Shown: positions 33,729 to 55,959 of the stretch, piece after piece
How positions within the stretch are numbered: position 1 is the first letter of the stretch
Layout: each line of letters begins with the position of its first letter
DNA from: Candidatus Latescibacterota bacterium
Lineage (GTDB): Bacteria > Latescibacterota > UBA2968 > UBA8231
Direction: 5' to 3'
Assembly (NCBI GenBank): GCA_965197905.1
Contig: CBDAOB010000003.1
Coordinates: forward strand, 352,001 to 416,000
DNA: 64,000 nucleotides
Made by a program: the position numbers and the translations under genes
The notes under the pieces: generated by a model
What the model saw: the letters and a program-made list of their open reading frames with translations, nothing else
Database searches by the model: none
Told to the model about the DNA's origin: nothing

Positions 33729-35099
33729 TTACATCACATCGTAGCGCAGGAACGAGAAGTACGCCCCCAAAAAGAACACGATATTCCACACACAGAGAAT
33801 GAGAATGTCGATCCAGTTGAGCCGATCTGAGATGGCCGAGTCCTCGTAGGTAAACTGTGGATACCCCTCGATGTTCCGCGAACGCCAGTCATCCCGCTTG
33901 TTCGCTTCGATGTACACATCCAACCCGAAGTCTGTAATCTCGCGACGATATTGGGGCAGCTGATCGAGAAAGAGGTTGCGGTCGCGAATACCGGTTCCCG
34001 CCAGATCAGACGCAGCATAGGCGAACGAAGCAAATGGCGACGCCCTGGAGATGTTCTGCGCCAACGCAATCTGAGCATTCATGGTCTTCTGAAACTGCTC
34101 GTTGATGCGATCCTGAATGTCCATGACCTTCGGCAGGTGATCCTTCTGCATCGTGTTGTAGTTGGCCCACCATTTGGAGCCGTACCGCCTTGGAATGTCG
34201 GGATTCGCCTCCGCCCACACATCGACTTCCGCCTGAAATCTCTTCTCCTCCTCTCGCTTGAGCTGGTTTTTTTCCTTTTCGACCAGCACGAACGATCGTA
34301 CCGAAGTCAACTGTGAAGCGATATACGGCGCAGTGTTGGGAATGACGAGAACCATCAGGACCCAGACCATGAGAAGGATGGTAATGGACGTAGAGGCCAG
34401 ATGAGTGCGCGAGGAGATAAACATGCCAAGGGAGTAGATGACAGACAGATATAGAAGCGCCACCAGGAGAATGAGGCCGAGGAACGCCCAGTGCTCCTCG
34501 CGTAACTCGACGGTGGGAAAGAGCACTACAACCACGAGGCCACATAGCAGCGAGATGATAAACGGACCAATCATGGCAAGGTAGCCGCCGATCCATTTGG
34601 CAAGAATCACGACATCTCGAGGCACGCTGTAGGACATTAACAGCTTCAGAGTGCCCAACTCCTTCTCTCCGGATATGGAATCATAGCTAAAGGCTATGGC
34701 CAGCAGGCTCATCACGATGCCGATGAAGAACAGCAAGTCGATGGGCGGAAAGAGAAATGATACGGGATTGCCTTCGTAGTCGGCTTCGAATTGGGGTTCG
34801 CGAACACCACTAACTTTCGCAGTAACGGTCAGCTCTTCGTTGATGCCTTTGAAGAAGATCTGCATGGGATTCAACGGCTTGTCCACTTTGATGCCATCGA
34901 AAGCCAGATCCCTGGACTCTTCGATCTCGGTCTTATGCATGACGAGATTGGTCCGATAATCCGACAGTGCCTCCTTGTAATCTCTTGTCAGCACAAATGA
35001 GCTGGAGAGCATGATCACCAGGCAGATGATACACGCCAGAGCGAAGCGGAGGCTCAGCAGCTGTTCGAGCAGCTCCTTACGTATTAGCAGGAATAACAT
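33729..35099 (-). CDS. ABC-2-like transporter permease
   Basis: RKELLEQLLSLRF, YDSISGEKELGTLKLLMSYSVPRD, ends FLRYDVM; GGAGG RBS. Confidence 0.92.
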   Translation of the reverse strand: MLFLLIRKELLEQLLSLRFALACIICLVIMLSSSFVLTRDYKEALSDYRTNLVMHKTEIEESRDLAFDGIKVDKPLNPMQIFFKGINEELTVTAKVSGVREPQFEADYEGNPVSFLFPPIDLLFFIGIVMSLLAIAFSYDSISGEKELGTLKLLMSYSVPRDVVILAKWIGGYLAMIGPFIISLLCGLVVVVLFPTVELREEHWAFLGLILLVALLYLSVIYSLGMFISSRTHLASTSITILLMVWVLMVLVIPNTAPYIASQLTSVRSFVLVEKEKNQLKREEEKRFQAEVDVWAEANPDIPRRYGSKWWANYNTMQKDHLPKVMDIQDRINEQFQKTMNAQIALAQNISRASPFASFAYAASDLAGTGIRDRNLFLDQLPQYRREITDFGLDVYIEANKRDDWRSRNIEGYPQFTYEDSAISDRLNWIDILILCVWNIVFFLGAYFSFLRYDVM

Positions 35100-35117
35100 C
35101 GATACCTCCCGAGATTT

Positions 35118-36504
35118 TCAAGTTACGTCGTAACGCAGAAAGAATAGGTACGACAACATTAAAAAAAGCACGTTGAGAACGATAATCACAAGTAGCTCGA
35201 TCATCACCTCATCGATGGCATCGTCGACGCGCGCCGGAACCACCTGCAGCACGGGAAACACTTCATTTTGAAACCAACGCGGGTTCAGTACTCCCTCGTG
35301 AAACCTGTAATGCCATTCCTCGCCCCAACTATCGTACTCGGTGCGGAACCGGGCGTAGGAGGTCTTGAACCTGTCGGATAGATCTACTCCAGTACTGGCC
35401 AGCCCGGTGGCGGCGTAGGTGTAACTTGCGGACGGAGAGAGGCGCGACAACATTTTGCTCAAGTCGATCTGCTGCTGCAATCGTTCCCGGTAATGCTGAT
35501 CTAGCTTCCTTTTTCGATTCTCGCCTTCCTCGCGAACCTTGTTGCGCGCCTCCTGCATCTTTGTACCGAAAAAATACATGCTCGAGTTGAGGCGGTTCAC
35601 CCGCAACCGTGTCTCCCGGTCGATCGACGCCTTTTCAGCGGCGATCTTCTGTGCTGTGGGAACGGGTGACAGCACGCGCGCAAAGACCGGCGCGATATTG
35701 GGTATGACCAGAATCCAACAGATCCACGCGAACAGCGACACCAGCAGGGCCGTAGAGGCCTTGTGAGTCAGGGTTGAAATCATCAACCCCAATGCGAAGA
35801 ACATCGAGATGTAGAGCAGTGAGACGGCAAGTATCCAAATCAGACGCTCCGCCGCCTCACCGCTCAGCTGCACCGAGCCGGTGAACGTACGCGAAGCCGC
35901 CGAACACGGATACCATGAACGGGACCGCCAGCGATGCAAATCCCCCTATCCACTTGCCCATCAGCACCAGGTCGCGGGGCACGGAATTGGCGAGAAGGAG
36001 CTTGAGGGTTCCGCGTTCCTTTTCACCGCAGACGGTATCGAAAACAAACAGCACAGCCAATAGGCTGATAACGATGTTGACAATGTAGACGAAATCGGGC
36101 GTGGCGAACAAAGCGAATAAAGGATTGCGGTAGGGACCTTCGTTGATCTTGCGCGCCCCGTTGAGCCAGACATTCACCTGGGTCGGCAGCTTGCGTTCCA
36201 ACCCGAGGGCGAACATGCTGAGACGACCGGGCCGCCGCCCATGATAACTTCCTTCGGCGGAGAGCATCTCGTCGTGAAACCGTTGGTTGAAATCCTGTTC
36301 ATCCTTGCTATCGGAGTAGAGATTGCTAATGGCGCTCCGGTGCTCCGAGCGAGCCGCCTCGAAGCTGGCCACCGATCTGGCATACTCATCGCTGAGAATG
36401 AATATGCTGGCCTGAATGAGCACGAAGAACAAAACAAAGGTCACCATGAACCGCAGACTCAGTATGTTGGCAGCGATCTCTTTTACGATGAGCGAGACTA
36501 GCAT
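35118..36504 (-). pseudogene. ABC-2-like permease, frameshifted near 35885
   Basis: N-half (35857-36504) and C-half (35118-35939) together align with intact paralog 45059-46423. Confidence 0.88.
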
Positions 36505-36519
36505 CTATCGATGGACGCG

Positions 36520-37977
36520 TTAGTCGAATATGATCCAGCCGTACCTGTCTGGCCGGCGCGTCAATCCATACGTCGGCGTCCACATCGCAAGCTCCGAGTC
36601 CTTGGCGCTGCGCAGCCTGCCGACGCTGAACCCCCAGACGTCCCCCTTCTTTACAGGGGCATCGCTCACTGAAGGGAACATGATCTCGCACTCCATAGCC
36701 CAGGACTTGGGATTCACCTGCGTAGCGCTCTTCAGGTCGGCGTCCCACGTCCAGTCGAGGGAAGGACCTTTCCCGAAACCGATGCTGCGATCGCCGACCA
36801 CTCCGATGCTGTTTATGTAGATGTGGTGGAAAGCCCACTCGTCACGGTCTGCGTCGATGAAGATCTGCATACATGGGTCCTTATGGGTCGCGCCGTCGTC
36901 CTTCTCCTTTGACCACGTTTGCAGATCGCCGGTATCCTCCTCGTACCCTTTAACCGCCACCAACAAACTGCTATCCGTGTACGCCACGTACGCTTCGCTG
37001 CGGCCCGTACCGGGGATAGAACTCATGACCCTGATCATCTTGTAGAACTGGTCGATGCGTGCCGCGTTCTTCCAGACCGGATCGCTGAGGTCTCCGTCGA
37101 TCTGTACCGCCTCCCGCAGCCGAGGAACACGCAGGGCCATCTGATTCTTTTCCAACATGTCCAGTCCCCGCAGGCGCTGCCCGTTGTTGAAATAGAACTT
37201 CCCCAACCGCATCGTCGGATTCTTGCTGTCCGGTTTGAATCTGTGGGCTTTTAGATAGGCCTCCTCGGCGCCGTCCAGGTTCGCCTTGAGCGCTAGCTTG
37301 TCCCCTTCCTGGACCATTTGGGCCACCATTTTTTCCATAAGCTCCCCCGCGTGGCGGCGCAAGGTATCGTCAGTGGTCGCGTTGTAGATCTCCGCGGTCT
37401 TGTCGGCAAGCTCTTTCAGCTCCGCCTCAGTCAACTCCTTACCGCCTATGATCCGGTGGGCTCCCCGCGTGCCGATTCTTTGTGACCGCCACCCTCCGAG
37501 AAACTGAATAGCGCGCACCAGTTCCAATTGGGGTCTGGTTGCCGTTTCGACGTCCAGACGTCGCACGAGGTCGTGGATGAGCTCCTTTTTCCCGGAGTTG
37601 CCGAGCCGGCGGATGGCGATGGCTCGCACTTCTGGCGCCTCGTCGTGGGCCAGCTGCTTCAACGCGACGAGGATGCTCTGGGTAGCTTCGCGCTGGTAGA
37701 TGCGTCCAACCACATCTATGAGATCTACACGCCCGGAAACAGGTTTGGTCGGGTCGGCGGCTGCCTCCAGGATCGCAGGAAGCGACTCAGCATCGCTCAG
37801 CACCAGATCCATCCTGGCGCGCTCGCGGTCCTCACCCCCAGATATCACATCATCAATGGAATCTGAAGTAGGATCGCCGCAGCCCAGGCACAGAGCCAGC
37901 ACTCCGTAGGCCGCCACGAACCTGAAACTCAGGATGTTGTTGACGATTTCTTTACGAATGATATAGAGGAGGATCAT
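36520..37977 (-). CDS. HEAT/TPR/CBM9-like lipoprotein with permease-derived N-terminus
   Basis: MILLYIIRKEIVNNILSFRFVAAY, then LCLGCGD, DEAPEVRAIA, VQIDGDLSDPVW, YGWIIFD. Confidence 0.85.
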   Translation of the reverse strand: MILLYIIRKEIVNNILSFRFVAAYGVLALCLGCGDPTSDSIDDVISGGEDRERARMDLVLSDAESLPAILEAAADPTKPVSGRVDLIDVVGRIYQREATQSILVALKQLAHDEAPEVRAIAIRRLGNSGKKELIHDLVRRLDVETATRPQLELVRAIQFLGGWRSQRIGTRGAHRIIGGKELTEAELKELADKTAEIYNATTDDTLRRHAGELMEKMVAQMVQEGDKLALKANLDGAEEAYLKAHRFKPDSKNPTMRLGKFYFNNGQRLRGLDMLEKNQMALRVPRLREAVQIDGDLSDPVWKNAARIDQFYKMIRVMSSIPGTGRSEAYVAYTDSSLLVAVKGYEEDTGDLQTWSKEKDDGATHKDPCMQIFIDADRDEWAFHHIYINSIGVVGDRSIGFGKGPSLDWTWDADLKSATQVNPKSWAMECEIMFPSVSDAPVKKGDVWGFSVGRLRSAKDSELAMWTPTYGLTRRPDRYGWIIFD

Positions 37978-37989
37978 GCACCCGGAGGT

Positions 37990-38712
37990 TCAGGCAGCTT
38001 GCTCCACCTCTCGGCTGACGTACTCCACGTAGAGCCGTTCGAGGTCTTCGTTGGCCAGCTCATCCCGGGTGAAGATGCGCACCAGGCTGCCCTCGATCAT
38101 GATGCCCACGCGGTCAGCGATCTCCTTGGCGCGAAAAATGTCGTGGGTGGTCATCCACACCGCCTTGTTCTCGCCGCGAAGATCGGCCAGCAACTGCAGA
38201 AATTCAGCCCCGGATTTGGGATCGAGGCCCGAGGTAGGCTCATCCAGCAGGATTACTTCGGCGTTCTTCACGATGGCGATCGCGATTCCCAACTTCTGTC
38301 GCATGCCTTTGGAAAATCCCTTCACGCGCCGGTTGAAGGCATCGCGCTGCAGTCCTACGCGCTCCATTATCTGTTCATACTCCGCATCGGTACTATCCTT
38401 GCGACCGCCGAGTTTTGCAAAGAAATCCAGGTTCTGCCGTGCCGTAAAATTTCCGTAAAGCATGACATTCTCGGACACATAAGCCACGTGTTTCTTGGCC
38501 TCCAGCGGATTCTTGGCCACGTCGATGCCACAGATCTTGACCGTCCCCGCAGTGGGTTCGGTAAAACCGAGGGAAACCATCAAGGTCGTGGTTTTGCCGG
38601 CCCCGTTGGCGCCAAGCATGGTAAAGATCTCGCCTGGCTGAATGGTCAGATCGAGGTTGTTCACCGCCCGGACATCGCCATAGTGCTTGGTCAAACCTTG
38701 GATCTCCAGCAT
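37990..38712 (-). CDS. ABC transporter ATP-binding protein (ABC-2 type)
   Basis: GANGAGKTT Walker A, FSKGMRQK signature, LLDEPTSGLD Walker B; GGAGG RBS. Confidence 0.96.
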   Translation of the reverse strand: MLEIQGLTKHYGDVRAVNNLDLTIQPGEIFTMLGANGAGKTTTLMVSLGFTEPTAGTVKICGIDVAKNPLEAKKHVAYVSENVMLYGNFTARQNLDFFAKLGGRKDSTDAEYEQIMERVGLQRDAFNRRVKGFSKGMRQKLGIAIAIVKNAEVILLDEPTSGLDPKSGAEFLQLLADLRGENKAVWMTTHDIFRAKEIADRVGIMIEGSLVRIFTRDELANEDLERLYVEYVSREVEQAA

Positions 38713-39004: not shown

Positions 39005-40348
39005 ATGTTTTGTGGCGCAAGGAGGTTCTTGAGCGGCTTGGGCCTCTGTTTTTTTACGGCCGCGTCGGCGGACGATCGTGTCCAACTCGACATGAGCTTC
39101 TGTCTCGACTCGGCCCTGGAACACAATCGCACCCTGGTGCAGGGGCGGGAGAAGATCAAGGAGGAGGAGAGCGGCAGGGTTGTCGTGCACTCACGGTTCA
39201 TGCCCCACCTGGATCTGACTGCAAATTACGATGCGCTGCGTACGGATCGGCGGGGCGTGACGGATGATGAGATCTCCAGCAGGTTGCGTTTCACCCAGCG
39301 GCTGCTGGAGTTCGGACCCGACCTTGCGGCCGAAGTGCAGCTACGCGCCGACCTCCGTGAGGCGATCTACTCCTACCAGGACCAGATCTACGCTGTCTTT
39401 TCAGAGGTGTGGCGCACCTATCACCTGATTCTCCTGCAGGATCGCCAGCTTGCCATTCGCCAACAATCCCGGCAGGGGTTTCAGGAGGTCTACGAGCGCA
39501 AGCAGGCCCGATTCGAGCGCCGGCTCTCTGATGAGGAGGAGGTGCTCACCGCCTATTTGAATGTGCTCAACGAAGAGCTGGCCATCAACAACGTGGAGCG
39601 CGCCCAGTTCAACAACAAGATGACGCTGCTACGATTGATTGGGCGCCCCATCGGAACGCAAGTGGAACTTGCATCCAGCGAGGTGGGATTCACCCCCGAT
39701 CCCGACAGTTCGGTCCAGGTAGCGATGGGAAACAGCGTCCAGGTTGCACTTGCCGAGAAACGTCTAGAAGAGCAACAGCGCGTGGTGAGCGAGATCGGCT
39801 GGGACTACACCCCCAATCTAAAGGTAGGCGCCGGTGTGGAAGACGGCAGGCGCGACGCCAGCGTCAACGTCGACAAAGACGGCGAAACCTGGGGCGTGGA
39901 CGTGGAGTCGCGGTTGCGGTTGAGCGAGAAGGAGACCGAACCCGGGCCCGGAGATGAGACCCAGTGGTTTGCCCGGGTCGAGGCGCGCATTCCGATCTTT
40001 GAAGGGGGATCGCGCGTTGGGCGGGAGCGTTTGGAGAAGGCTCGGGAACGTCAGGTACAGGTCGAGGTCGCGGACCTGCGCGCCGCCACCGAGCTCCAGG
40101 TGCGACAGGCGTATCAGTCGATGCTGGAAGCAGAGGGGCGGCAGCAGATTCAGGAGGAGCAGGTGCGCATTGCCCGGCGCCGCCTGGAGATCAACCAGAT
40201 CCTCAAAGACAAGGGGCAGGCAGACGAGAGCAAGCTGGAACAGATACGCACCCAGTTCTTTGCAGCCCAGGATATCCTGTTCCAGAATCAGGCCACCTTC
40301 ATCGACCGTCAGGCCGATCTGCGCAAACGTATGGGCTACTTCGAATGA
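39005..40348 (+). CDS. TolC family outer membrane factor
   Basis: Signal peptide, LDMSFCLDSALEHNRTL, PHLDLTANY, RIPIFEGG, ELQVRQAY, two OEP-like halves. Confidence 0.88.
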   Translation: MFCGARRFLSGLGLCFFTAASADDRVQLDMSFCLDSALEHNRTLVQGREKIKEEESGRVVVHSRFMPHLDLTANYDALRTDRRGVTDDEISSRLRFTQRLLEFGPDLAAEVQLRADLREAIYSYQDQIYAVFSEVWRTYHLILLQDRQLAIRQQSRQGFQEVYERKQARFERRLSDEEEVLTAYLNVLNEELAINNVERAQFNNKMTLLRLIGRPIGTQVELASSEVGFTPDPDSSVQVAMGNSVQVALAEKRLEEQQRVVSEIGWDYTPNLKVGAGVEDGRRDASVNVDKDGETWGVDVESRLRLSEKETEPGPGDETQWFARVEARIPIFEGGSRVGRERLEKARERQVQVEVADLRAATELQVRQAYQSMLEAEGRQQIQEEQVRIARRRLEINQILKDKGQADESKLEQIRTQFFAAQDILFQNQATFIDRQADLRKRMGYFE

Positions 40349-41862
40349 CGCAGCGCAAGGTTCCCCACCTTCTTCTGTTGCTTTTGGTGCATGCTGCTGC
40401 GGCCTTCGGCGAGCAGAGCCTGACCAAGGAACAGCAACTGAGCAAGCTGAAGCTAAGAGAGCGGATTTTGGCATTGGAAGAACGACGTACAAGCTTGCAG
40501 ACCCACCGAGAAGAGCTGCAGACGACGAGAGAGCTCTTCGACGGAGGTTTCGTCGCGTTGCAGAAGCTCAAACAGACGCGCAATCGTTTCGAGCAGGCCC
40601 GCCTCGATTACGAGTGGGCGGAGATTGAACTCGAGGAGGCCAAGCTGGAACTGTTGAGAACAGCGACGCACATCATCGTCTCGGAGGCACGCAAGTACAA
40701 GACCGAAGAGGGCAAGTTCATGGTTGACGTCGTTCTTGAAAACGCTTCCGACATTCGCGACGCCCTGCTCGTGGACGCGGCGCTGACGGAGGAGGAGTTG
40801 CGCACTCTCCTGAAGGTAGAGCACATCTTTGCGTCGGTGAGTTATGGTCCGATCGTAGGCGAGCCTTACGAGATCCGCATCCCGTCTCTGGAGGTGGGGG
40901 AGCAACGCAAGATCACCTACCGCCTGCTTCGGGACGAAGAGGCGGTCTACGTCAACCTGAAGTATCTGGATATCAAAGATGAGAAGCCGGTGATCCTCAA
41001 GAAGGGAAGCCAGCAAGATCTTCCCAGCATCAACTCGGCGCAGTTCTCCCAGGAAGGCGAGCTCAATCAAACAGTGAGGTTCGGTCTAACACTCCAGCGC
41101 CTGGCGGAGGAGGAACGTAACTTCGCCCTCGCCGTGATTGGGCTGCCACCGCGGATCGACTACGCCTTCGTAAATCAGGGAGCGAAAGTCAATCAGATAA
41201 AATTCGACGAAACTACCTCGGAGGTGAAACTATCGCTGGAAATGGATATCCCGGAGAAGCTTGATCGGAAGCTGGTCGAGGTAACACGCACCTTTTTCGC
41301 TCTGGTTACGAACGTCAGCGAGTACGCCAAAATCAATGAGCTCCGCGCTCGCTACGGCGAAAACCAAGTCCAGGAAGAAGACGTGAAGTTGCTCAAAGCC
41401 AACTACGTTCGTCTCGAGCTGATTCCCAAGGGTATCGGCAAACTGGAGGTGCTGATCTCCAATCGGTACCTGGAGACCGAAGTCGGCGAGGAGCTGCAGT
41501 TTCGCGTCGAATTCCTCAACCGCGGCACGGTAGCGGTGCAGAATATCCGGGCCGAGCTCGACTTACCGTATGAATGGGAAAGCAGCGTTGAGCCGAAGCT
41601 CTTCAAGCTGCTTGAGCCCGGGGAGAGCGGTCCCATCTCGATCTGGTCCCGCCCGCCCGAGAACATCGCTGTAGGAGACTATGAAGTAGGGGTCGAAGCC
41701 CAGGGACAAGTTGGTACGGAAAACATCGAATCTCTGGAAAAGAACATCACCGTCCGCATCGGTGCCCGCTCCAACATTACCGGAAATGCCATTCTCATCG
41801 GGGTTCTCGTGTTGATGGTTGTGGGTATAGGTGTGGCCAGCGTCAAGATCAGTCGCAAGTAA
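40345..41862 (+). CDS. Signal peptide + alpha-hairpin + Ig-like/NEW3-like domains + C-terminal TM protein A (COG1470-like)
   Basis: VEFLNRGTVAVQNI..LPYEWESSVEP..LEPGES..PENIAVGDYEV NEW3-like motif; TM + KISRK tail. Confidence 0.8.
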   Translation: MTQRKVPHLLLLLLVHAAAAFGEQSLTKEQQLSKLKLRERILALEERRTSLQTHREELQTTRELFDGGFVALQKLKQTRNRFEQARLDYEWAEIELEEAKLELLRTATHIIVSEARKYKTEEGKFMVDVVLENASDIRDALLVDAALTEEELRTLLKVEHIFASVSYGPIVGEPYEIRIPSLEVGEQRKITYRLLRDEEAVYVNLKYLDIKDEKPVILKKGSQQDLPSINSAQFSQEGELNQTVRFGLTLQRLAEEERNFALAVIGLPPRIDYAFVNQGAKVNQIKFDETTSEVKLSLEMDIPEKLDRKLVEVTRTFFALVTNVSEYAKINELRARYGENQVQEEDVKLLKANYVRLELIPKGIGKLEVLISNRYLETEVGEELQFRVEFLNRGTVAVQNIRAELDLPYEWESSVEPKLFKLLEPGESGPISIWSRPPENIAVGDYEVGVEAQGQVGTENIESLEKNITVRIGARSNITGNAILIGVLVLMVVGIGVASVKISRK

Positions 41863-41864
41863 TC

Positions 41865-43397
41865 ATGCCAGCGCTTCGTAGAGTCCTCATGTCGGCAGTT
41901 CTCCTGCTCGCGGTTTTCAATGCTGGCGCCAAGGATCTGCGGACCAAAGAGCAGCGCCTGTACGATATTCAGCTGCGCAAATCCCAGTGGAAGGTGGACA
42001 ACGCCAGGCTCGACATGGAAATCAAGTTGAGCGACTACGAAGAGATCCAAGATCTCTTTAACCAGAAGATCGGCACCCTGGACGGCTTGAACGAAGCGCG
42101 ACGCAAATCGCAGCAGGCCAGGCTGAAATACGACCATGCCGTCATCGACCTGGAGTCCAGACGCCTCTCCTTCCTGCGCGACGCCACCCACATTTCGATC
42201 ATAGAGGCCAAGAAGTACAAAACGCCTGAAGGATACCGAAAGGTAGAGATCACCCTCGAAAACGCGTCCAATCTCAATCAGGCAGCCTCCCTCAATCCGG
42301 ACAAGAGCCTCGATCAGGTGCGCGACCTGCTGGAGATCCAGAACGTACAGGTCTCCTTGCGCCAGAGGGACAACTTGATCATTGGCGAGCCTTACGAGGT
42401 GCTGGTTCCCTCATTGAAATTGGGCGCCCGGCGCAAGCTCATGTTTCGCCTGTTGAACGACCGAGAATCGGTCAAGCTTTCTCTCACACTTCGCGACAAC
42501 CAACGCAAGGACGTACGCGTAGTTCTGCGCAAGGAGTCGCTGCAGGACATACCCACCATCAACTCGGTCCAGTTCTCCCAAGAGGGTGATCTGAACTCCA
42601 AGGTGGACTTCGATATCATTCTGGAACGGCTCGCGGAAGACGAAAAGACCTTTCGCCTGGCCGTAGTAAATCTGCCGAGTGAAATCGACTTTGCTTTCCT
42701 GGACAAGGCCACCAATGCCAGCTTGACCCAGGTGAAGTTCAGCGAGCAGGTTACCCGTCAGCAATTGGAATTGGAGATTCAGATTCCGGAGAAATTGAGC
42801 CGCCATTTCGTAGATCAGACGGTTGAATTCTACGTTTTCGTGACCGACGCGGAAGGATTCCAGCAGATCAGTAAGCTGAACAAGAAATACGGCACGAAAC
42901 GGATGGAGCTCGAGGATATAAATACGGTGAAGGGCAACAAAGAACGCTTCGAGCTCGTTCCGCGGGGCAAGGGCGCGCTCGAGACCATCATCGCCAACCG
43001 GTATCAGGAAATCAAGGTCGGCGAAGAGGTCACCGTACGCGTCGACTTGCTCAACACCGGGACCCTTGAAGTGGCAGATTCCCACATGATCCTTACAGCA
43101 CCGCTGGATTGGACCTACGAAGTGGTGCCGGACACGATTGCACGGATCATACCTGGCGAAAAGGAACCGGTGAACATAACATTCGTGCCCCCCGAAGAGA
43201 TGGGAGTGGGCGAGTATGGGATTCGTGTCGAAGCTGCCGGTTACGTCGGTGTAGAGAAGGTCGAAGCACCGGAGAAGGACCTGACTATTCGAGTGGAAGC
43301 CCAAGCCAGCGTCATCCGCAACGTCCTGATAATCGGCGCGGTTATCACCCTCGTCGTGGGAGTAGCTGTCGCGAGCATCAAGGTGAGTCGCCGGTGA
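41865..43397 (+). CDS. Signal peptide + alpha-hairpin + Ig-like/NEW3-like domains + C-terminal TM protein B
   Basis: Full-length paralog of A (ATHI..EA.KYKT.EG, P.INS.QFSQEG.LN, LLNTGTL..PLDW..PGEK..GEY); TM + KVSRR tail. Confidence 0.8.
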   Translation: MPALRRVLMSAVLLLAVFNAGAKDLRTKEQRLYDIQLRKSQWKVDNARLDMEIKLSDYEEIQDLFNQKIGTLDGLNEARRKSQQARLKYDHAVIDLESRRLSFLRDATHISIIEAKKYKTPEGYRKVEITLENASNLNQAASLNPDKSLDQVRDLLEIQNVQVSLRQRDNLIIGEPYEVLVPSLKLGARRKLMFRLLNDRESVKLSLTLRDNQRKDVRVVLRKESLQDIPTINSVQFSQEGDLNSKVDFDIILERLAEDEKTFRLAVVNLPSEIDFAFLDKATNASLTQVKFSEQVTRQQLELEIQIPEKLSRHFVDQTVEFYVFVTDAEGFQQISKLNKKYGTKRMELEDINTVKGNKERFELVPRGKGALETIIANRYQEIKVGEEVTVRVDLLNTGTLEVADSHMILTAPLDWTYEVVPDTIARIIPGEKEPVNITFVPPEEMGVGEYGIRVEAAGYVGVEKVEAPEKDLTIRVEAQASVIRNVLIIGAVITLVVGVAVASIKVSRR

Positions 43398-43499: not shown

Positions 43500-43631
43500 A
43501 GCATAGCTCTGGTAGAGACGGTTTGGTGCCGCAGCAAGCCTGTAAAGCGCAGCCGACCAACCGGAGACCATCAACCGGCTGAAATGTCCTTCATCCCTGG
43601 ATGCAACGCACCCGCACTCTCGGAGCGCAAA

Positions 43632-44993
43632 ATGCGTCATGTCTTACGACGCGTTATTTATGTTCGCTTTTGGAGCGCTGTCCTCATAGCCTCGCCGTGG
43701 CTGGCAGCGTGTGGCACCTCCTACGAAGACAGTATCGACAAACTTAGCGGTGGCCCGGACGAACGCACCATGGGCAAACATGAGCTGTTGTTGGCCAAGG
43801 CCGATGCCATCGATCCGATCATTGCTGCGTTGGAAGGGCCGGATCTCGGACAACGCTCCGATCTCGCCGAGGTAATGGTCAACCTCTCTTTGCGGCTCGA
43901 AGATGACCGGATCGCAGCAGCGCTCAAGAAACATCTTATCGATGACTCCGATTCACAGGTACGTGCGCGAATTGCCGACAGATTAGGGCTGCACATAAAG
44001 GAGGAGTATATCGACGCCTTCATGCGGGCCGTGACCGATCCTTCGCCAAGAGTGCGGGCGCCCGCTTTGGATGCCCTGAGCAACGTGTTGGCGAAGCTGA
44101 GTGAAGAGCAGATTCAGACATTGCGCGAACGGACGGCGCAAAACGCCGTGGATGAGGATCGGGAGGTGCGCGAAGCGGCGCTCTACCTGGTTGAGGAGTT
44201 CGTCGGCCGCTGGGCCCATGACGCCCGCGAGCAAGCATTGAAGGCAAACCTTTCGGCCGCCGACTCGATTTACAACCGGGCCCTGGCGTACGCCCCGACC
44301 AGCAAACAAGCCAACTACTACATGGGCACCTATTGTTACGAGTACGGTGACCGCGAACGGGGGTTGCAGCTACTACGCGAGAGCAGCCTCCTCCTGGACG
44401 TGCCCAGATTCCCTTCACCCCCGACGATTGATGGTCGACTGGACGACCCGATCTGGGGCCATGCCGTCAGGATCGACTCGTTTTACGCCTATGGAAAGTC
44501 CCGCACCAGCCTTCCTCCCTTGGTCTCGAGCCGGGCGTTTGTGGGTTATTCGGATCAATCTCTCTACCTGGGGGTTCACTGTTTCGACGCCCACCCAGAA
44601 AGCCTGGTCGTAAAACCGTTCGACGATGCGAGTTACGGCAACGCGCGCCAGGATCTGGTCGAGCTCTTCTTTGACCGCAACAGGGACCAGACAACCTTCT
44701 CCGTCGTCAAAATCAACACCGACGGATCGGTGAGAGGCGGGAGGAATGATTTCAGCAAGGGCCACACGCGGGATCTTTCGTGGGATCTCGAAGGTGCCGC
44801 GGCTGTTTTTGTCGGGGATGATTTCTGGTCTGTCGAATTGCAGCTCGACTGGGACGCGGAGCAACTTCACCGGCCCGTTCCGGGCGATCTGGCGGGTATG
44901 AATATTCACAGGTTGTTTCGTGCCGTCGAATACAGCCAGCCGTTTCGCGATTATGATGAAAACAGGGCGCCGGGTTATTTACTTTTCGAATAG
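43632..44993 (+). CDS. HEAT/TPR/CBM9-like lipoprotein
   Basis: GGAG RBS before ATG 43632; LAAC lipobox; HEAT repeats; PTIDGRLDDPIW. Confidence 0.88.
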   Translation: MRHVLRRVIYVRFWSAVLIASPWLAACGTSYEDSIDKLSGGPDERTMGKHELLLAKADAIDPIIAALEGPDLGQRSDLAEVMVNLSLRLEDDRIAAALKKHLIDDSDSQVRARIADRLGLHIKEEYIDAFMRAVTDPSPRVRAPALDALSNVLAKLSEEQIQTLRERTAQNAVDEDREVREAALYLVEEFVGRWAHDAREQALKANLSAADSIYNRALAYAPTSKQANYYMGTYCYEYGDRERGLQLLRESSLLLDVPRFPSPPTIDGRLDDPIWGHAVRIDSFYAYGKSRTSLPPLVSSRAFVGYSDQSLYLGVHCFDAHPESLVVKPFDDASYGNARQDLVELFFDRNRDQTTFSVVKINTDGSVRGGRNDFSKGHTRDLSWDLEGAAAVFVGDDFWSVELQLDWDAEQLHRPVPGDLAGMNIHRLFRAVEYSQPFRDYDENRAPGYLLFE

Positions 44994-45058
44994 AACTATT
45001 CACGTGGCCCCGCCACCGGGTTGGCGGTTGCCTCACTATTGCGCTAGGAGATACAGGC

Positions 45059-46423
45059 ATGTTGCTCACACTGATTAATAAAGAGATCGTCGCCAACGTG
45101 CTCAGCTTGCGCTTCATGGTCACCTTCGTGCTGTTCTTCGTGCTGATACAGGTGAGCATTTTCGTTCTGAGCGGTGAATATGGAAGGGATGCTGCGACCT
45201 ACGAAGCCAGTAGATCTGTCCAGCGCGACCATATCAACGTGCTCGAGGGTCTCGAGGATTTCAACAAAAGATTTCACGATGATATCATCTACGGAGAGGG
45301 GATCTACGATTCGGTCCAGCCGCAGCCGTTGAGCATCTTCGTGCACGGACTGGTGAATCAGTTGCCCGTTCAAGTAAACAGTTCCTACGAGAACGACTCG
45401 TTTACGATCAACCTCGAGTTCTACCGCAACCCTCTGCTGTCCCTGTTTGCGACACCGGATTACAGCTACATCGTTAACATAGTCGTCAGTCTGCTCTCTC
45501 TGCTGTTCGTCTTCGATGCGATTTGCGGCGAAAAGGAACGGGGCACGCTCAAGTTGCTCCTGTCCAATTCCGTTCCACGTGATCTCGTACTCCTCGGCAA
45601 GTGGATCGGTGGATTTATCTCACTGGCGGTCCCGTTCCTCGTCGCCCTGTTCGGCGGTCTGATCATGATATACTGGACCGGCGCTATTCAGCTCCACGAG
45701 GAAGTCCTCGTGCGATTCATTTGGATCGCCGGCGTTTCACTGCTCTACGTCCTTTTGTTCTTCGCGCTTGGAATGATGATCTCAACCCTCACCCACAAGG
45801 CATCGACCGCGCTATTGGTCTCGTTGTTCGTGTGGGTTTGCTGGGTCCTCGTTGTCCCGAACCTGGCGCCGGTTGCGGCGCGCATCGTATCGCCGATTCC
45901 GCCCCGCGCTGTCATCGACGCGGAGAAGATCGCCATCCAGCAGGAGGGTGAAGTCAGGGAGAGCATCTTCTGGAAGAGAGGCGCCCTGGACAAAGTGGAA
46001 AAGGTTCGCGACGAGGTGCGGCAGGATCAGCAGTCATTGGAGGTATTCTATGAAACCAAAATGCGGACTCAGATCGAGCTGGCACGGACGCTTTCTCGCA
46101 TCTCTCCATCCGCCAGCTTCACCTACCTTGGCAGTGATCTCGCCAACACCGGGATCGGAATTTTCAGCAACTTCAAAAGATCCTTCCACCGGTTCGACGC
46201 GGAATTCAAGGAATGGGGAGAGGCTTGGGACAAGAAGTTCCACAGTGGTGGACATGATGAAAACTGGTATCAAGAAGAGCAACTGCCGACGATGAACTTC
46301 GCTGCCGCCCGCCTCGACGACACCCTCAATGCCTCCATGGGCGACCTCCTTCTGATGCTGATTTTCAATGTCCTCTTTTTCATGCTTTCCTACCTCTTCT
46401 TCCTGCGCTACGACGTGACCTGA
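45059..46423 (+). CDS. ABC-2-like transporter permease
   Basis: AGGAG RBS; KEIVANVLSLRF, FDAICGEKERGTLKLLLSNSVPRD, ends FLRYDVT. Confidence 0.92.
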   Translation: MLLTLINKEIVANVLSLRFMVTFVLFFVLIQVSIFVLSGEYGRDAATYEASRSVQRDHINVLEGLEDFNKRFHDDIIYGEGIYDSVQPQPLSIFVHGLVNQLPVQVNSSYENDSFTINLEFYRNPLLSLFATPDYSYIVNIVVSLLSLLFVFDAICGEKERGTLKLLLSNSVPRDLVLLGKWIGGFISLAVPFLVALFGGLIMIYWTGAIQLHEEVLVRFIWIAGVSLLYVLLFFALGMMISTLTHKASTALLVSLFVWVCWVLVVPNLAPVAARIVSPIPPRAVIDAEKIAIQQEGEVRESIFWKRGALDKVEKVRDEVRQDQQSLEVFYETKMRTQIELARTLSRISPSASFTYLGSDLANTGIGIFSNFKRSFHRFDAEFKEWGEAWDKKFHSGGHDENWYQEEQLPTMNFAAARLDDTLNASMGDLLLMLIFNVLFFMLSYLFFLRYDVT

Positions 46424-46426
46424 TAG

Positions 46427-47782
46427 ATGCGGGGGGAGACACGCTTCGTTGTGAGATGTTGTGTGACCCTTGTGATAGTTATAGGGCTTTCCAGCTGCGG
46501 CCCATCCGTCGAAGACAACATCGAGAATCTCGGCGCCGGTCCAGATGAACGAGCCATGGCAAGGCACGAGCTCATTCTCGCCAAAGAGGGCGCCGTCGAG
46601 CCGATTGTCGCCGCGTTGGAGTCTCGAGATAGCCCCGAGATTCGTCCCGACCTGGCAGAGGTGTTGGTGGATTTGCTGCTGCGCGCGGAAGACGAGCGAA
46701 TCTGGGCCGTACTAGAAAAACATCTCCTCGACGATTCCGACCCAAGAGTGCGTGGCCGCATCGCCGATAAGCTCGGAGCTCGCCTCCGCCCCGAGTATTT
46801 CGACATTTTCCTGCAAGCGGGATCCGATTCTTCGCCCATGGTGCAGGCCCCCATCCTGCAGGCCATGAGCGACGTGCTCAAAAAGCTCAGCGACGAGCAG
46901 ACTCGGACGTTGCATCAGCTCGCCCGCAGAAGCGCAGGATCCGAAGATCGGGAGGTACGCGAAGCAGCCTTGTTCTTGGTGGAGGAGTTCATCGCCAGCT
47001 GGGCAAAAGAAGCGCGCCAGGAAGCTCTGAAAGCGAATCTCTCAAGAGCCGACTCGATCTACAATTTGGCGTTGGCCTACGCACCCACGAGCAAACAGTC
47101 AAACTACTATATGGGTACGTTTTATCTGGAGTACGGGGATCGGGAGCGTGGGCTACAGCTGTTGCGGGAAACCCGCCTGCTGGTCGACGTTCCTCGGTTC
47201 TCGTCGGCTCCACGGATCGATGGTAGGTTAGACGACGAGGTTTGGGAAGGTGCCGGCAGGATAGATTCCTTTTACGTCCATTTCCCCAGAACTCGTACGA
47301 CACTTCAACCCCGGGCTCAATCCAACGGGTTTCTGGGTTACACGGCCGAGGCTCTGTATTGGGGCATTCGCTGCTTCGATGCGCACCCTGAAAGCCTGAT
47401 GGTCACACCACTCGAAGACAAATTTGGCGGCGAGCGCCACGACCGGGTCACCTTCCGGTTCGATCGCAACCTCGACAAAAAGACCCTCTCCTACATGACC
47501 GTAAACAGCGTGGGAGCCGTGAATCATAGCTGGCGTGACTATAGCATCAGCCGCTTCCCCGATTACACCTGGAACGCGCTCGGGAGCGGAGCGGCCCATG
47601 TCGGCGACGACTTCTGGACGGCCGAATTCGAGCTTCGTTGGGACCCGAAATACCACCCCCGGCCCGTTCCTGGTGAGATCTCGGGCATTGACCTTACCCG
47701 GTTGTTCCGCACGGTGGAGTACAGTGAAGCGTTTCGTGGGTATGACGATGTGTATGCATCCGGATACGCCCTCTTTCAATAG
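46427..47782 (+). CDS. HEAT/TPR/CBM9-like lipoprotein, array copy 1
   Basis: LSSC lipobox; family motifs GPDERAM..HEL, AYAPTSKQ.NYY, PRIDGRLDD, FDAHPESL, VGDDFW. Confidence 0.9.
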   Translation: MRGETRFVVRCCVTLVIVIGLSSCGPSVEDNIENLGAGPDERAMARHELILAKEGAVEPIVAALESRDSPEIRPDLAEVLVDLLLRAEDERIWAVLEKHLLDDSDPRVRGRIADKLGARLRPEYFDIFLQAGSDSSPMVQAPILQAMSDVLKKLSDEQTRTLHQLARRSAGSEDREVREAALFLVEEFIASWAKEARQEALKANLSRADSIYNLALAYAPTSKQSNYYMGTFYLEYGDRERGLQLLRETRLLVDVPRFSSAPRIDGRLDDEVWEGAGRIDSFYVHFPRTRTTLQPRAQSNGFLGYTAEALYWGIRCFDAHPESLMVTPLEDKFGGERHDRVTFRFDRNLDKKTLSYMTVNSVGAVNHSWRDYSISRFPDYTWNALGSGAAHVGDDFWTAEFELRWDPKYHPRPVPGEISGIDLTRLFRTVEYSEAFRGYDDVYASGYALFQ

Positions 47783-47806
47783 GTTTGCGTCGCGACGAAC
47801 CTGACC

Positions 47807-49195
47807 ATGATCGAACATCCTTGGATTCGCCAGTATCGCGCGACGGTCGCGTCCACACTGAGGAAGCTCTGGGTCGTAGCCGCGTTTTTGTACCTCGCCG
47901 CTTGCGGACCATCCATAGAAGAGAGCATCGAGAAGCTCGGCGCCGGTCCAGACGAGCGAGCCATGGGCAAACACGAGCTGGTTCTGGCCAGGGATCTAGC
48001 CATTGGGCCGATTATCGCCGCGTTGGAGTCGCAGGACAGGAGAGAGGTCCGGCCCGACCTGGCCGACGTATTGGTTAGCATGATGCTGCGCGCGGATGAC
48101 AAACGGATCGAAGCCTCGCTCAAGAAACACCTGCTTGATGATGCGGACCCCCGAGTGCGCGCCCGGATCGCCGATAAACTGGGTCTTCATATGAAATCCG
48201 AGTTTTTTGAGGTATTCCTGCTGGCCGCCTCCGACACATCACCCTCGGTGCGAACTCCCGTACTGAACGCCCTGAGCAACTCGCTTTCCCACCTCTCAGA
48301 CGGGCAGATTGAGACGTTGCACCGGCTCGCCCGCGAAGGCGCGGATGCCGAAGATCGGGACCTTCGCGAAGCCGCCTTATACATAGTGGAGGAGTTCGTC
48401 GCCCGTTGGGCGAAGGATGCCCGCGAGGAAGCCCTCAAGGCGAATCTCTCAAGCGCCGACTCAATCTACAATGTGGCATTGGCCTATGCACCAACGAGCA
48501 AACAGGCAAACTATTATATGGGTACGTTCTACTTCGAATACGGTGACCGCGAGCGCGGGATGCAACTGCTGCGGGAAAACCGCCTGCTGTTCGACCTACC
48601 CAGGTTCGTATCAACACCGCAGATCGACGGCCGGTTGGACGATTCGGTTTGGGAAGGTGCCGCCAGCATTGATTCGTTTTACACGCATTCAGGCGATTCC
48701 CGCACCTCGCTTCAACCCAAGGTTCAGACCCGAGCGCTGATGGGTTACTCTGATGAGGCGCTCTATTGGGGTATGCATTGCTCCGACGCCCATCCGGAGA
48801 GTTTGATCGTCTTGCCATACGGCGACAGCTCCCAACGCAACAGGTACCAGGACATCGTCGAGTTCTTCTTCGATCGCAATCTGGACAGAAAGACCATCTC
48901 GGTGATGAAAGTGAACAGCGCCGGAGTCGTTAGAGATGGCCTGGATGACTACAACATTAGCCGCGAGCGCGATCTTTCCTGGAACGCAAAAGGGGCTGCC
49001 GCCGCTTATGTCGGAGACGACTTCTGGTCGGTCGAATTCGAGCTTCGCTGGGACCGGAAATACCATCCCGTGCCGGTTCCGGGTGAGGTCTCCGGCGTAG
49101 ACTTTCACCGTCTGTTTCGCGCAATCGAGTGGAGCCAGCCGTTTCGCGGATATGACGGTCTCAGAGCAACCGGATACGTGGTCTATCAACAATGA
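47807..49195 (+). CDS. HEAT/TPR/CBM9-like lipoprotein, array copy 2
   Basis: LAAC lipobox; same family motifs. Confidence 0.9.
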   Translation: MIEHPWIRQYRATVASTLRKLWVVAAFLYLAACGPSIEESIEKLGAGPDERAMGKHELVLARDLAIGPIIAALESQDRREVRPDLADVLVSMMLRADDKRIEASLKKHLLDDADPRVRARIADKLGLHMKSEFFEVFLLAASDTSPSVRTPVLNALSNSLSHLSDGQIETLHRLAREGADAEDRDLREAALYIVEEFVARWAKDAREEALKANLSSADSIYNVALAYAPTSKQANYYMGTFYFEYGDRERGMQLLRENRLLFDLPRFVSTPQIDGRLDDSVWEGAASIDSFYTHSGDSRTSLQPKVQTRALMGYSDEALYWGMHCSDAHPESLIVLPYGDSSQRNRYQDIVEFFFDRNLDRKTISVMKVNSAGVVRDGLDDYNISRERDLSWNAKGAAAAYVGDDFWSVEFELRWDRKYHPVPVPGEVSGVDFHRLFRAIEWSQPFRGYDGLRATGYVVYQQ

Positions 49196-50580
49196 TCCAT
49201 CACCGGTTGAGTCGCCATCTTCATTTCCGCACAAAAGCAGCGTCGGGGCTGAAGGGTATTTGTGCGGCAACCACGACGGCATACCTTGCCGCCTGCGGTC
49301 CGTCGATCGAGGACAGCATCGACAAGCTCGCTGCCGGTCCCGACGAGCGAGCCATGGGCAAACACGAGCTCATTCTTGCCAAGGATCAAGCCATCGAGCC
49401 GATTATCACCGCGTTGGAGTCGCAGGACAGGGCGGAGGTCCGACCCGATCTGGCCGAGGTACTGGTGAGCATGATGTTGAGATCGGACAACCCGCGGATC
49501 GAAGACGCACTCAAGCATCACCTGCTTGACGATCCCGACCCGAGGGTACGCGGTCGCATCTCCGACAAACTTGGTCTGCACCTGAAATCCGAATTTTTTG
49601 ACGTTTTTCTGCAGGCAGTCGACGACACCTCGCCTACGGTGCAAACCGCAGCTATGCTCGCCCTGGAACCTGTGCTCCACAAGCTAGACGAGGAACAGAC
49701 TCGGACGTTGCGTCAGCTTTCCCGCGAAAACGCAAGAGCCGAAGATCGGGAAGTGCGCGAAGGAGCCTTGTTCTTGGTGGAGGAGTTCGTCGGCGGCTGG
49801 GCAAAGAAAGCCCGCGAGGCAGCTCTCAAAGCTGATCTCTCCAAGGCGGACTCGCTCTACAACGTAGCGTTAGACTACGCGCCAAATAGCAGACAAGCCC
49901 GCTACTACCTGGGAACATTCTACTTCGAGTATGGCGACCGCGAGCGGGCGTTACGATTTCTGCGGGAAAATCGACTCTTGATCGACCTTCCCAGGCTCGC
50001 GTCGGCTCCGAAGATAGACGGCCGGTTGGACGATCAAGCCTGGGAGGGTGCCGTGAGAATCGATTCATTTTACGTCCACGCGGAATCCCGCACCACGCTT
50101 CCGCCGTTGGTCGAATCGTATGCGGTGATGGGCTACTCCGACGAGGCCCTCTATTGGGGTGTGCACTGCTTCGACGCCCATCCGGAGAGCCTGATAGTCA
50201 AGCCGTACGGAGACGACGGTTCGGCTGACGGACGCCAGGACTACGTCATGTTCCGTTTCGATCGCAACCTTGACCGCAAGACGCACGTCCAGGTGGCGGT
50301 AAATAGCGCTGGTGCCTTGAGAGATGGTCGGAGTGACTTCAACAAAAGTCACAGACGCGATTTCACCTGGGATGCCGACGCGACGGCGGCCACCTATGTC
50401 GGAGACGATTTTTGGTCCGTCGAGCTGGAGTTTCGCTGGGAACCGGAATATCATCCCCTACCCGCTCCGGGTGAGATCTCAGGCATTGACATTGTCCGCC
50501 TTTTCCGCTGGACTCAGTGGAGTCAACCGTTTCGCGGGTACGACAATCTCTACGCAACCGGGTACATGGTCTATCAATAG
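49192..50580 (+). CDS. HEAT/TPR/CBM9-like lipoprotein, array copy 3
   Basis: LAAC lipobox (weakly hydrophobic signal); ATGA overlap; same family motifs. Confidence 0.9.
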   Translation: MIHHRLSRHLHFRTKAASGLKGICAATTTAYLAACGPSIEDSIDKLAAGPDERAMGKHELILAKDQAIEPIITALESQDRAEVRPDLAEVLVSMMLRSDNPRIEDALKHHLLDDPDPRVRGRISDKLGLHLKSEFFDVFLQAVDDTSPTVQTAAMLALEPVLHKLDEEQTRTLRQLSRENARAEDREVREGALFLVEEFVGGWAKKAREAALKADLSKADSLYNVALDYAPNSRQARYYLGTFYFEYGDRERALRFLRENRLLIDLPRLASAPKIDGRLDDQAWEGAVRIDSFYVHAESRTTLPPLVESYAVMGYSDEALYWGVHCFDAHPESLIVKPYGDDGSADGRQDYVMFRFDRNLDRKTHVQVAVNSAGALRDGRSDFNKSHRRDFTWDADATAATYVGDDFWSVELEFRWEPEYHPLPAPGEISGIDIVRLFRWTQWSQPFRGYDNLYATGYMVYQ

Positions 50581-50605
50581 GTTTTCGTCACGACGTAACC
50601 TGACG

Positions 50606-51988
50606 ATGATGATCGAACAACCTTGGATTCCCCATCATCGATTCCGCTCGACAGCCGCTTCCGCGATGAGTGGGATCTGTGTTACGGCTTTATTCCTAGC
50701 CGCCTGCGGACCTTCCGTAGAAGAGAGCATCGCGAAGCTCGGCGCAGGACCTGACGAGCGAGCCATGGGCAAGCACGAGCTCATTCTGTCCAGGGATCTA
50801 GCCATCGAGCCGGTGATCGCCGCGCTGGAAACCCAAGATGTCAAAGAGATTCGTTCCGACTTGACGGAGGTGTTGGTGGCTCTGCTCCTGCGCTCGAAAA
50901 ACATGCGGATCTGGGCCGTGCTCGAGAAGCTCCTGCTTGAGGATCCCGACCCCAAGGTGCGCGGCCGCATTGCCGACAAGCTGGGGCTCCACCTGCGCTC
51001 CGAGTACTTTGACGCTTTCCTGCAGGCGGTTTCCGATACGTCGCCTGCGGTGCACACCCCCGCCCTGCTCGCCCTGGGAAACGTGCTCCATCAGCTGAGT
51101 AACGAACAGACTCGAACCCTGCGCCTGCTCGCCAGGGAACGAGCGAAGTCCGAGGAGCAGGGGGTCCGCGACGCGGCGTTATACCTAGTGGAGGAGTTCG
51201 TCGCCCTCTGGGCAAAACAAGCCAATGAAGAAACCCTGAAAGCGAATCTATCGGAAGCCGACTCCATCTACGGAAAGGCGGTGGCGTACGCACCTACCAG
51301 CAAACAGGCCAACTATTACCTGGGCACGTTCTACTTCGAACACGGCGACCGCCAGCGGGGGCTTCAGCTACTGCGGGAAAACCGCCTGCTAATCGACGTG
51401 CCGAGGTTCGCGTCGACTCCACGGATCGACGGACGGTTGGACGATTTGGTTTGGGAAGGTGCGGCCAGGATAGATTCGTTTTACACGCATTCTCCCGAAT
51501 CACGCACGACGCTTCAACCTATGGTACAGACCCACGCGTTCATGGGTTACTCCGACGACGCGTTTTTTTGGGGCGTTCACTGTTTCGACGCCCACCCCGA
51601 AAGCTTGATCGTTCTGCCTTACGACGATGAGCCAGGCAGCATCTCGAGATACCAGGACCTGGTCGAGTTCTTTTTCGATCGGAACCTGGACAAGAAGACG
51701 ATAGCTGTAATGAAGGTAAACAGCGCGGGAACCGTGCGAGATGGCTTGGATGGTTACAAGGGTCAGCGCGATCACAGCTGGGATGCGGGAGGGTCCGCGG
51801 CCACGTATGTCGGCGACGATTTCTGGTCCGTCGAATTCGAGCTCCGCTGGGACCAGTACAATCCCCGACCCGTTCCCGGTGAGGTCTCCGGCGTAGACTT
51901 TCATCGACTGTTTCGTGCGGCCGAGTGGAGTCAGACCTTTCGCGGATACGACGGTAACGACGTGCCTGGCTATCTACTCTATCAATGA
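50606..51988 (+). CDS. HEAT/TPR/CBM9-like lipoprotein, array copy 4
   Basis: Start reassigned by alignment with paralogs (MMIEQPWIP); LAAC lipobox. Confidence 0.9.
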   Translation: MMIEQPWIPHHRFRSTAASAMSGICVTALFLAACGPSVEESIAKLGAGPDERAMGKHELILSRDLAIEPVIAALETQDVKEIRSDLTEVLVALLLRSKNMRIWAVLEKLLLEDPDPKVRGRIADKLGLHLRSEYFDAFLQAVSDTSPAVHTPALLALGNVLHQLSNEQTRTLRLLARERAKSEEQGVRDAALYLVEEFVALWAKQANEETLKANLSEADSIYGKAVAYAPTSKQANYYLGTFYFEHGDRQRGLQLLRENRLLIDVPRFASTPRIDGRLDDLVWEGAARIDSFYTHSPESRTTLQPMVQTHAFMGYSDDAFFWGVHCFDAHPESLIVLPYDDEPGSISRYQDLVEFFFDRNLDKKTIAVMKVNSAGTVRDGLDGYKGQRDHSWDAGGSAATYVGDDFWSVEFELRWDQYNPRPVPGEVSGVDFHRLFRAAEWSQTFRGYDGNDVPGYLLYQ

Positions 51989-52285: not shown

Positions 52286-52477
52286 CTATACGTCTGACTT
52301 GACAAAGGGAGAGAGGTTGTCGATCTTCCCTGCGTGACAGGTTGGCTTGCGGAGCAATGCTCGCCCTACGTCGGCGGGCGTTGCTCCTTGGTAGCGTGGG
52401 TTTGGGGACGGAGTGGTCGACCACTCCTCTACTGCCGCGTGGCGCTCCTTCTCCGTGGGCTTGCGCGAGTGAGTCAT
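52286..52477 (-). CDS. Small IS-associated hypothetical protein
   Basis: ATGA overlap with the methylase gene; PNPRYQGATPADVGRALL; ends at the IS boundary. Confidence 0.5.
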   Translation of the reverse strand: MTHSRKPTEKERHAAVEEWSTTPSPNPRYQGATPADVGRALLRKPTCHAGKIDNLSPFVKSDV

Positions 52478-55925: not shown

Positions 55926-55959
55926 AGAATCTGATTTCCCCCCTTCCACCAAAGAAGAT

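Follow-up and report, generated by a model that had tools for sequence, protein, structure and literature searches.

The stretch of DNA analysed here (the window) covers 64,000 nucleotides of the genome of a Candidatus Latescibacterota bacterium (assembly GCA_965197905.1, contig CBDAOB010000003.1, positions 352,001 to 416,000) and contains, immediately downstream of a tolC gene, two adjacent paralogous genes, A and B, that are candidates for an unusual type of TolC adaptor. A preliminary description, made from the sequence alone, had proposed that their products form an inverted, heteromeric adaptor, and both the coordinates it gave for the two open reading frames (ORFs) and the motifs it quoted are exact. 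The features of the gene pair and of tolC, in window coordinates, are the following:

39005..40348, + strand, tolC-family outer-membrane factor (PF02321, two stretches, E 3.6e-33)
40345..41862, + strand, gene A, 505 aa: signal peptide, hairpin, three beta-sandwiches, C-terminal membrane helix
40426..40665, + strand, adaptor-type alpha-hairpin of A (residues 28-107; invariant L64 at 40534-40536)
40672..41430, + strand, first two beta-sandwiches of A, both domains with helical inserts (residues ~110-220 and ~225-362; without a Pfam family)
41437..41769, + strand, NEW3 domain of A (residues ~365-475; PF10633, E 1.6e-11)
41788..41844, + strand, C-terminal membrane helix of A, then KISRK
41865..43397, + strand, gene B, 510 aa: paralogue of A with the same architecture
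41946..42185, + strand, hairpin of B
43323..43379, + strand, membrane helix of B

A and B share 40% identity across 501 aa, their hairpins align without a gap, and the genome has no other member of the family; conservation across the A/B clade is 57-77%. Judging from their sequences, both would carry a cleaved signal peptide; no lipobox cysteine occurs in either, and in both the hydrophobicity is weak at the N-terminus and strong at a C-terminal helix (residues 482-500 in A and 487-505 in B) that is followed by a basic tail, which bears out the C-terminal anchor proposed earlier. The same helix and tail are present in 288 of 291 family members. PF10633 (NEW3) is the sole Pfam match in the two proteins, with scores of 44.6 and 38.7 bits against a Pfam cut-off of 24.4, and lies in the last domain (residues 379-453 of A); the label “NEW3-like” given to the proteins thus holds for the last beta-sandwich but not for the other two. 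In a structure search, the NEW3 domain of A resembles the sialidase 1eut (Z 12.0, root-mean-square deviation (rmsd) 1.9, 99 residues aligned), while the matches listed for residues 110-475 include neither an adaptor barrel nor a lipoyl domain, a result that does not amount to an exclusion. Foldseek with the whole model of A returned only generic Ig-repeat proteins (integrins, Hydin-like chains), the ESM Atlas only NEW3/COG1470 clusters, and a single-sequence search of A against PDB sequences no significant match.

The AlphaFold2 model of A (32 sequences; pLDDT 87, pTM 0.49) consists of a helix at residues 28-66, a turn, a helix at residues 72-107, three beta-sandwiches and the C-terminal helix. 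The coiled coil broken by a turn, seen in the preliminary description, is therefore predicted as a true hairpin, of about 80 rather than about 70 aa, in place of the single long helix that the same description had named as the outcome speaking against it; B, with 40% identity and no gaps, is expected to have the same hairpin. Against 48,161 solved chains, the top structural matches of the hairpin of A are HlyD (Z 11.2, rmsd 1.6, 83 aligned) and EmrA (Z 10.9), and the AcrA hairpin superposes with Z 10.8 and an rmsd of 1.4 Å over 80 residues, MacA giving Z 10.1. The antiparallel alpha-helical hairpin typical of the adaptor family is thus present in the model of A, and is found again in the profile matches. 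In particular, a search of PDB sequences with a profile of 80 family members yielded 29 matches at E ≤ 10, 19 of them in the hairpin region, and all of the 16 hairpin-region matches at E < 1 are periplasmic adaptors; those matched by this profile include MexJ (0.0013), the TriAB fusion (0.0033), MacA, MexA, AcrA and EmrA. With a profile built from 23 hairpins, most of them of the paired clade, MexJ ranks first (1.7e-4), and a Bacteroides adaptor, ZneB and MacA complete the top four. TIGR01730, the NCBIfam model of efflux adaptors, matches residues 30-106 of A weakly (E 0.026, 13.5 bits, cut-off 94.9). Of 120 listed relatives, 35 carry a precomputed match to PF25893 and 1 to PF25876; both are presumably adaptor helical-hairpin families, and these matches were not counted. 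A shorter hairpin is found in the Aminicenantes members.

At the tip of the hairpin, the RLS motif with which adaptors dock TolC can be placed in register with AcrA, L64 corresponding to AcrA L132. The R, L and S positions are occupied by T60, L64 and A71 in A and by E60, L64 and T71 in B, so that R and S are indeed gone, as had been noted, and the leucine is retained. This leucine is present in 30/30 A, 30/30 B and 22/22 single-copy proteins. The full motif is found in none of the 30 A and none of the 30 B, in 17 of 22 single-copy loci (mostly closely related ones from Aminicenantes) and in 34 of 94 distant representatives, a count that excludes three broken or short single-copy genes and two gapped representatives; the RLS pattern is also present in 74 of 116 further relatives. 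True adaptors too deviate from RLS, according to the portion of a review available to us (PMC4446572).

The link with TolC is seen at the level of gene order. In the window, the tolC ORF is open from a TTG at 38918, and the ATG at 39005 gives a protein of 447 aa, as in locus L003; its stop codon overlaps the start codon of A (ATGA, 40345-40348), in keeping with the translational coupling described earlier, and this 4-base overlap recurs in 26 of the 29 paired loci holding tolC. A total of 98 loci were mapped, of which 94 were kept after the removal of 4 duplicates; short flanks led to the dropping of 11 loci from the OEP count and 17 from the ABC count. An OEP gene lies within 3 kb of the family gene in 74 of 83 informative loci and no more than 500 bp away in 72; whether it precedes or follows the family gene depends on the lineage (Pfam confirmed 21 of the 23 candidate neighbours that were scanned). 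As previously stated, no canonical adaptor gene was found on the contig of the window (TIGR01730, PF13437, PF13533); those of the genome are on other contigs, mostly adjoining OEP genes of their own. A purpose-built hidden Markov model (HMM) of canonical adaptors had matches at 3 of the 94 loci, 6.8-7.2 kb away, and in L018, the one checked, the canonical adaptor adjoins an AcrB gene. This HMM undercounts, since it missed HlyD-type genes in L088 (13469-14527) and L094 (15477-16535), which are part of a distinct small-permease ABC cluster immediately downstream of the module.

A likely inner-membrane partner, overlooked by the preliminary description, is encoded by divergent ABC-2 ATPase and permease genes (33729-38712). 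The corresponding features, together with one further permease gene, are the following:

33729..35099, - strand, intact ABC-2 permease with a NosY-like type V fold (PF12679; long periplasmic helices)
35118..36504, - strand, frameshifted ABC-2 permease gene, 5 bases fewer than in L003
36520..37977, - strand, HEAT-repeat lipoprotein-like gene, one of 22 paralogues
37990..38712, - strand, ABC ATPase, 240 aa, divergent from tolC (PF00005; the only member of its subfamily in the genome)
45059..46423, + strand, further intact ABC-2 permease of the same family

The frameshifted permease gene, which is the one nearest the ATPase, is likely a real pseudogene, since the frameshifted version recurs, free of gaps, in contigs of two samples; intact paralogues are found at 45059-46423 and 12903-15816. 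The model of the permease at 33729..35099 (pLDDT 91) shows periplasmic helices of ~30-45 residues, and its closest solved fold is NosY (Z 25.8, rmsd 2.9, 253 aligned). An ATPase or permease gene is located within 6 kb of the family gene in 74 of 77 informative loci, and the joint association with TolC and ABC-2 transporter genes is seen across several phyla. The module therefore contains the two partners expected of a tripartite pump, namely a TolC-family outer-membrane factor and an energised inner-membrane transporter. Eight permease ORFs are found in the genome for a single ATPase, a single tolC and a single A/B pair, which suggests that pairs of permeases are interchangeable. Furthermore, in five full-length proteins (P0259, P0265, P0286-P0288; 65-78% identical between clusters) the ABC-2 permease is fused to the whole hairpin-stalk protein, and the former signal segment has become a membrane helix. 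In L068 (2-2857) this fusion is a single ORF in the DNA, followed by the ATPase gene; its nearest named relative is a Holophagales permease. Relatives without hairpin have also been found, in Bacteroides finegoldii, Chondrinema litorale and on a Hyphomicrobiales plasmid, in all three cases beside an ATPase and a permease gene and with no OEP gene within 6 kb. These triads, only three in number, suggest that the hairpin and tolC were later additions to a stalk that is itself an old ABC subunit. Two close family members, P0168 and P0179, are entirely devoid of the hairpin.

Genes for HEAT-repeat, CBM9-like lipoproteins form a tandem array in the window (11482-12963, 36520-37977, 43584-51988 and 55678-60684). 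Each permease cluster is flanked by one of them, and few other loci show them; they might encode cargo or an accessory subunit. An N6 DNA methyltransferase gene (52474-53934, - strand) lies within the array, adjoining a truncated paralogue. No sigma-54-type site was found at 33-46 kb of the window. Elsewhere, genes for a sensor kinase and a sigma-54-type response regulator adjoin the module (L039, L040, L044, L048, L050, L051 and L055-L057, from the ORF starts read). These loci are of the Aminicenantes type, and the Eubacteriales labels of several such records are doubtful, since the records group with Aminicenantes and carry tolC.

The adaptor-specific sequence of the hairpin, the RLS motif in relatives, the linkage to TolC and ABC-2 genes and the fusion to the permease support the adaptor role that had been proposed. 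We consider it quite probable, on these grounds, that A and B constitute a non-canonical periplasmic adaptor joining the NosY-like ABC-2 transporter to the TolC encoded by the adjacent gene.

The presence of two paralogues requires a separate explanation. The family comprises at least 428 clusters at 50% identity and was found in 67 of the 151 genomes sampled from the phylum, and in 43 of 63 within the taxonomic family of the host; many relatives are single-copy, so the pair is not required by the family. Where it occurs, A and B are adjacent and in the same order in 30/30 loci. In a quick tree of 74 rows, one clade comprises 16 of the 17 A rows (the exception being L031_A) and another the 17 B rows, and their inner groupings match. 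Both genes are under purifying selection, with ratios of nonsynonymous to synonymous substitution (dN/dS) of 0.03-0.12, the hairpins included where measurable. The tips also differ in a fixed manner: a Gly is present in 28/30 A and 1/30 B, and a Thr occupies the S position in 30/30 B. By the evidence of their sequences, A and B are thus old paralogues kept together with fixed, different tips, which supports the proposed heteromer indirectly. On the TolC side, the first hairpin tip in the window lacks the usual Gly, as in 30/30 paired loci, while 39 of 42 single-copy loci have it, and the Gly pattern of the A, B and TolC tips fits specialised A and B sites. A prediction of the complex of one TolC protomer with A (24-222) and B (24-225) scored 0.02 (mark 0.32) and carries no weight either way. 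Finally, stalk length varies in the family, since the first beta-sandwich is repeated three or more times in members of 718-797 aa (P0115, P0116, P0128, P0133 and P0135).

Several observations weigh against an adaptor that docks TolC, or against the pair as a matched heteromer. In the fold search, unrelated helical hairpins equal the adaptors (F-BAR, Z 10.6; MORC2, 10.4; designed bundles), so the fold alone is not specific. With the profile of 23 hairpins, the outer-membrane factors CmeC and OprM come close behind the adaptors (E 0.02-0.04), and Pfam OEP matches 16 of these hairpins, weakly, a likeness to TolC-family hairpins; by sequence, the hairpin would belong with the tip hairpins of adaptors and outer-membrane factors, and the donor could be either. 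Adaptor hairpins are also described in Gram-positive bacteria, which have no TolC, in the accessible part of PMC4446572, so a hairpin need not mean TolC docking. No OEP gene is nearby in 9 of the 83 informative loci (L072, L086-L089, L091, L092, L094 and L095), eight of which retain ABC genes; in L092 the A/B pair (6898-10202) has neither tolC nor ABC genes within 7 kb. The locus counts, moreover, are not independent, since the loci are related to one another. Regarding the pair, the Gly pattern represents one evolutionary event, and some single-copy adaptors lack the Gly as well; in a wider set, R is present in just 14 of 40 single-copy Latescibacterota genes, so its loss predates the pair and is not tied to it. 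The idea that the loss of R and S marks the heteromer was rejected for the same reason. The L092 pair sits downstream of an integrase-like gene, and the locus is possibly a disrupted module. L086-L089, L091, L094 and L095 form a clade with adaptor, ATPase and permeases, no adjacent tolC and the tip AxxxLxxxxxxS/A. Loci without a nearby OEP gene are genuine exceptions; other OEP genes are present elsewhere in the five such genomes checked, and a tolC shared from elsewhere in the genome, as in E. coli, could explain such loci.

The main rival explanation makes A and B the periplasmic arms of an ABC machine that resembles NosDFY and operates within the periplasm, in which the hairpin serves self-assembly or contacts with the long permease helices and TolC is a frequent but separate neighbour. 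NosDFY moves a periplasmic protein and is not known to export cargo. The likeness of the permease fold to NosY, its long periplasmic helices, the complete triads formed by the hairpin-less relatives, the nine loci without an adjacent OEP gene and the Gram-positive hairpins all suit this possibility. Nevertheless, it accounts poorly for an OEP gene within 500 bp in 72 loci, on either side according to lineage, for the conserved overlap of tolC and A, and for conserved residues that are those of a TolC-docking tip; furthermore, the three triads that lack the hairpin lack tolC too. On balance we regard it as improbable. Much less credible still is that A and B are cargo, that is, surface or S-layer-like proteins exported by the neighbouring system and bearing a C-terminal sorting helix. 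The NEW3/CARDB-like domains, and the basic-tailed C-terminal helix of 288 of 291 members, are reminiscent of sorted surface proteins, and the variable stalk length would agree; yet the fusion to a polytopic permease ties the protein to the inner membrane, and the conservation within the clade and the invariant adaptor-type tip are unlike variable surface cargo. A and B could instead both be TolC adaptors, each forming a homo-oligomeric ring of its own for different permease pairs or conditions. The single-copy relatives, in which one gene can suffice, and the eight permease ORFs per ATPase in the genome speak in its favour; however, single-adaptor loci also carry up to 6-8 permeases, both A and B are kept where just two permeases are nearby (L017, L018, L022 and L029), their tips are fixed and different, and among the 30 paired loci neither A nor B of the paired clade was seen alone. 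Such separate rings therefore seem unlikely, albeit the least so of these three alternatives. If A and B are adaptors, a strict A3B3 arrangement is moderately favoured.

The proposed adaptor differs markedly from known systems. A and B share with AcrA, MexA, MacA, HlyD and EmrA the fold, length and tip register of the alpha-hairpin, as well as a gene adjoining those of an outer-membrane factor and an inner-membrane transporter; many relatives of A and B also have the tip motif RxxxLxxxxxxS. Unlike in the AcrA type, the hairpin is N-terminal, ~5 residues after the signal peptide with no preceding strand, and outside any lipoyl domain (no lipoyl or HlyD Pfam match at E ≤ 0.1 in A or B), and the chain passes only once from hairpin to membrane, through three beta-sandwiches, to a C-terminal anchor. 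Known adaptors are anchored at the N-terminus, as far as the available text of PMC4446572 goes. The N-terminal membrane anchor or lipid of the HlyD/AcrA/MacA family is absent from A and B, as is the insertion of the hairpin in a lipoyl domain, and the pair therefore falls outside that family. The term “inverted” of the preliminary description is apt for the chain polarity and the anchor but not for the hairpin, which would still face the outer membrane. TriABC-OpmH of Pseudomonas aeruginosa also has two paralogous adaptors (36% identical, versus 40% for A and B), both required and with distinct roles, according to the accessible parts of PMC4338810 and PMC13328181; TriA and TriB, however, are canonical adaptors of an RND pump, whereas A and B are non-canonical and their transporter is a type V ABC. 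The likeness to MacAB-TolC would lie in an ATP-driven two-fold transporter that meets a three-fold outer-membrane factor via six hairpins, as predicted for A and B, but MacB is a type VII ABC with the canonical MacA, in place of the separate ATPase, NosY-like permease paralogues and stalk protein found here. NosDFY provides, in NosY, the closest solved fold of the permease, which has ~190 more residues than NosY, mostly in long periplasmic helices; no NosD was seen here, and tolC and hairpin proteins are present instead. COG1470-type NEW3 triads resemble the A/B module in having a signal peptide, domains of the NEW3 type, a basic-tailed C-terminal helix and a homologous ATPase and permease, but they have no hairpin, no adjacent OEP gene and a shorter permease. 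No C-anchored adaptor with an Ig stalk is described in the portions of PMC4446572, PMC8277102, PMC13328181 and PMC4338810 available to us, and no published description of the A/B family or of COG1470-type triads was found in a search that was slight on subscription papers and without supplements, in which the sole match for COG1470 was an unrelated mention. A tail-anchored adaptor pair would therefore be an undescribed way to build a TolC pump.

The mechanism that we propose starts from what the analysis shows, namely the domain order, the predicted fold and sequence likeness of the hairpin, the gene linkage and the natural permease fusion, and borrows stoichiometry, docking and export by analogy from MacAB-TolC. 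A and B would be exported by Sec and halted in the inner membrane by the C-terminal helix, which, with the NEW3 domain, would pack on a permease pair powered by the 240-aa ATPase. The beta-sandwiches would bridge the periplasm, and six hairpins would make a ring contacting the six TolC tips, tip to tip, via L64; in this lineage A and B would occupy alternate positions (A3B3), each serving one type of TolC tip, in the way suggested for TriA and TriB. ATP-driven movement would then open TolC, and cargo would be exported. The module likely originated from an older ABC triad, composed of a hairpin-less COG1470-type stalk, an ATPase and a permease, that gained a hairpin and a TolC gene. The complete scenario, in which an adaptor- or outer-membrane-factor-type hairpin on the COG1470 stalk of a NosY-like triad gave a trans-envelope exporter in several diderm phyla and a duplication in Latescibacterota gave A3B3, with each subunit matched to one TolC tip, has in our judgement slightly less than an even chance of being correct in all its parts.

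In the review text available to us, adaptors are chains anchored at the N-terminus that run out and back and contain lipoyl and barrel domains. If the family considered here docks TolC, the hairpin alone would be a portable docking module, and a tripartite pump would be possible on an unrelated stalk with a NosY-like type V ABC transporter. The family also offers natural experiments, in the form of hairpin-less triads, single-copy RLS forms, the permease fusion, longer stalks and the A/B pair; the latter would allow one to ask how two non-equivalent TolC sites are served, a question that comes from TriA and TriB. More generally, a testable role is now available for at least 428 clusters of proteins annotated merely as “NEW3 domain-containing”.

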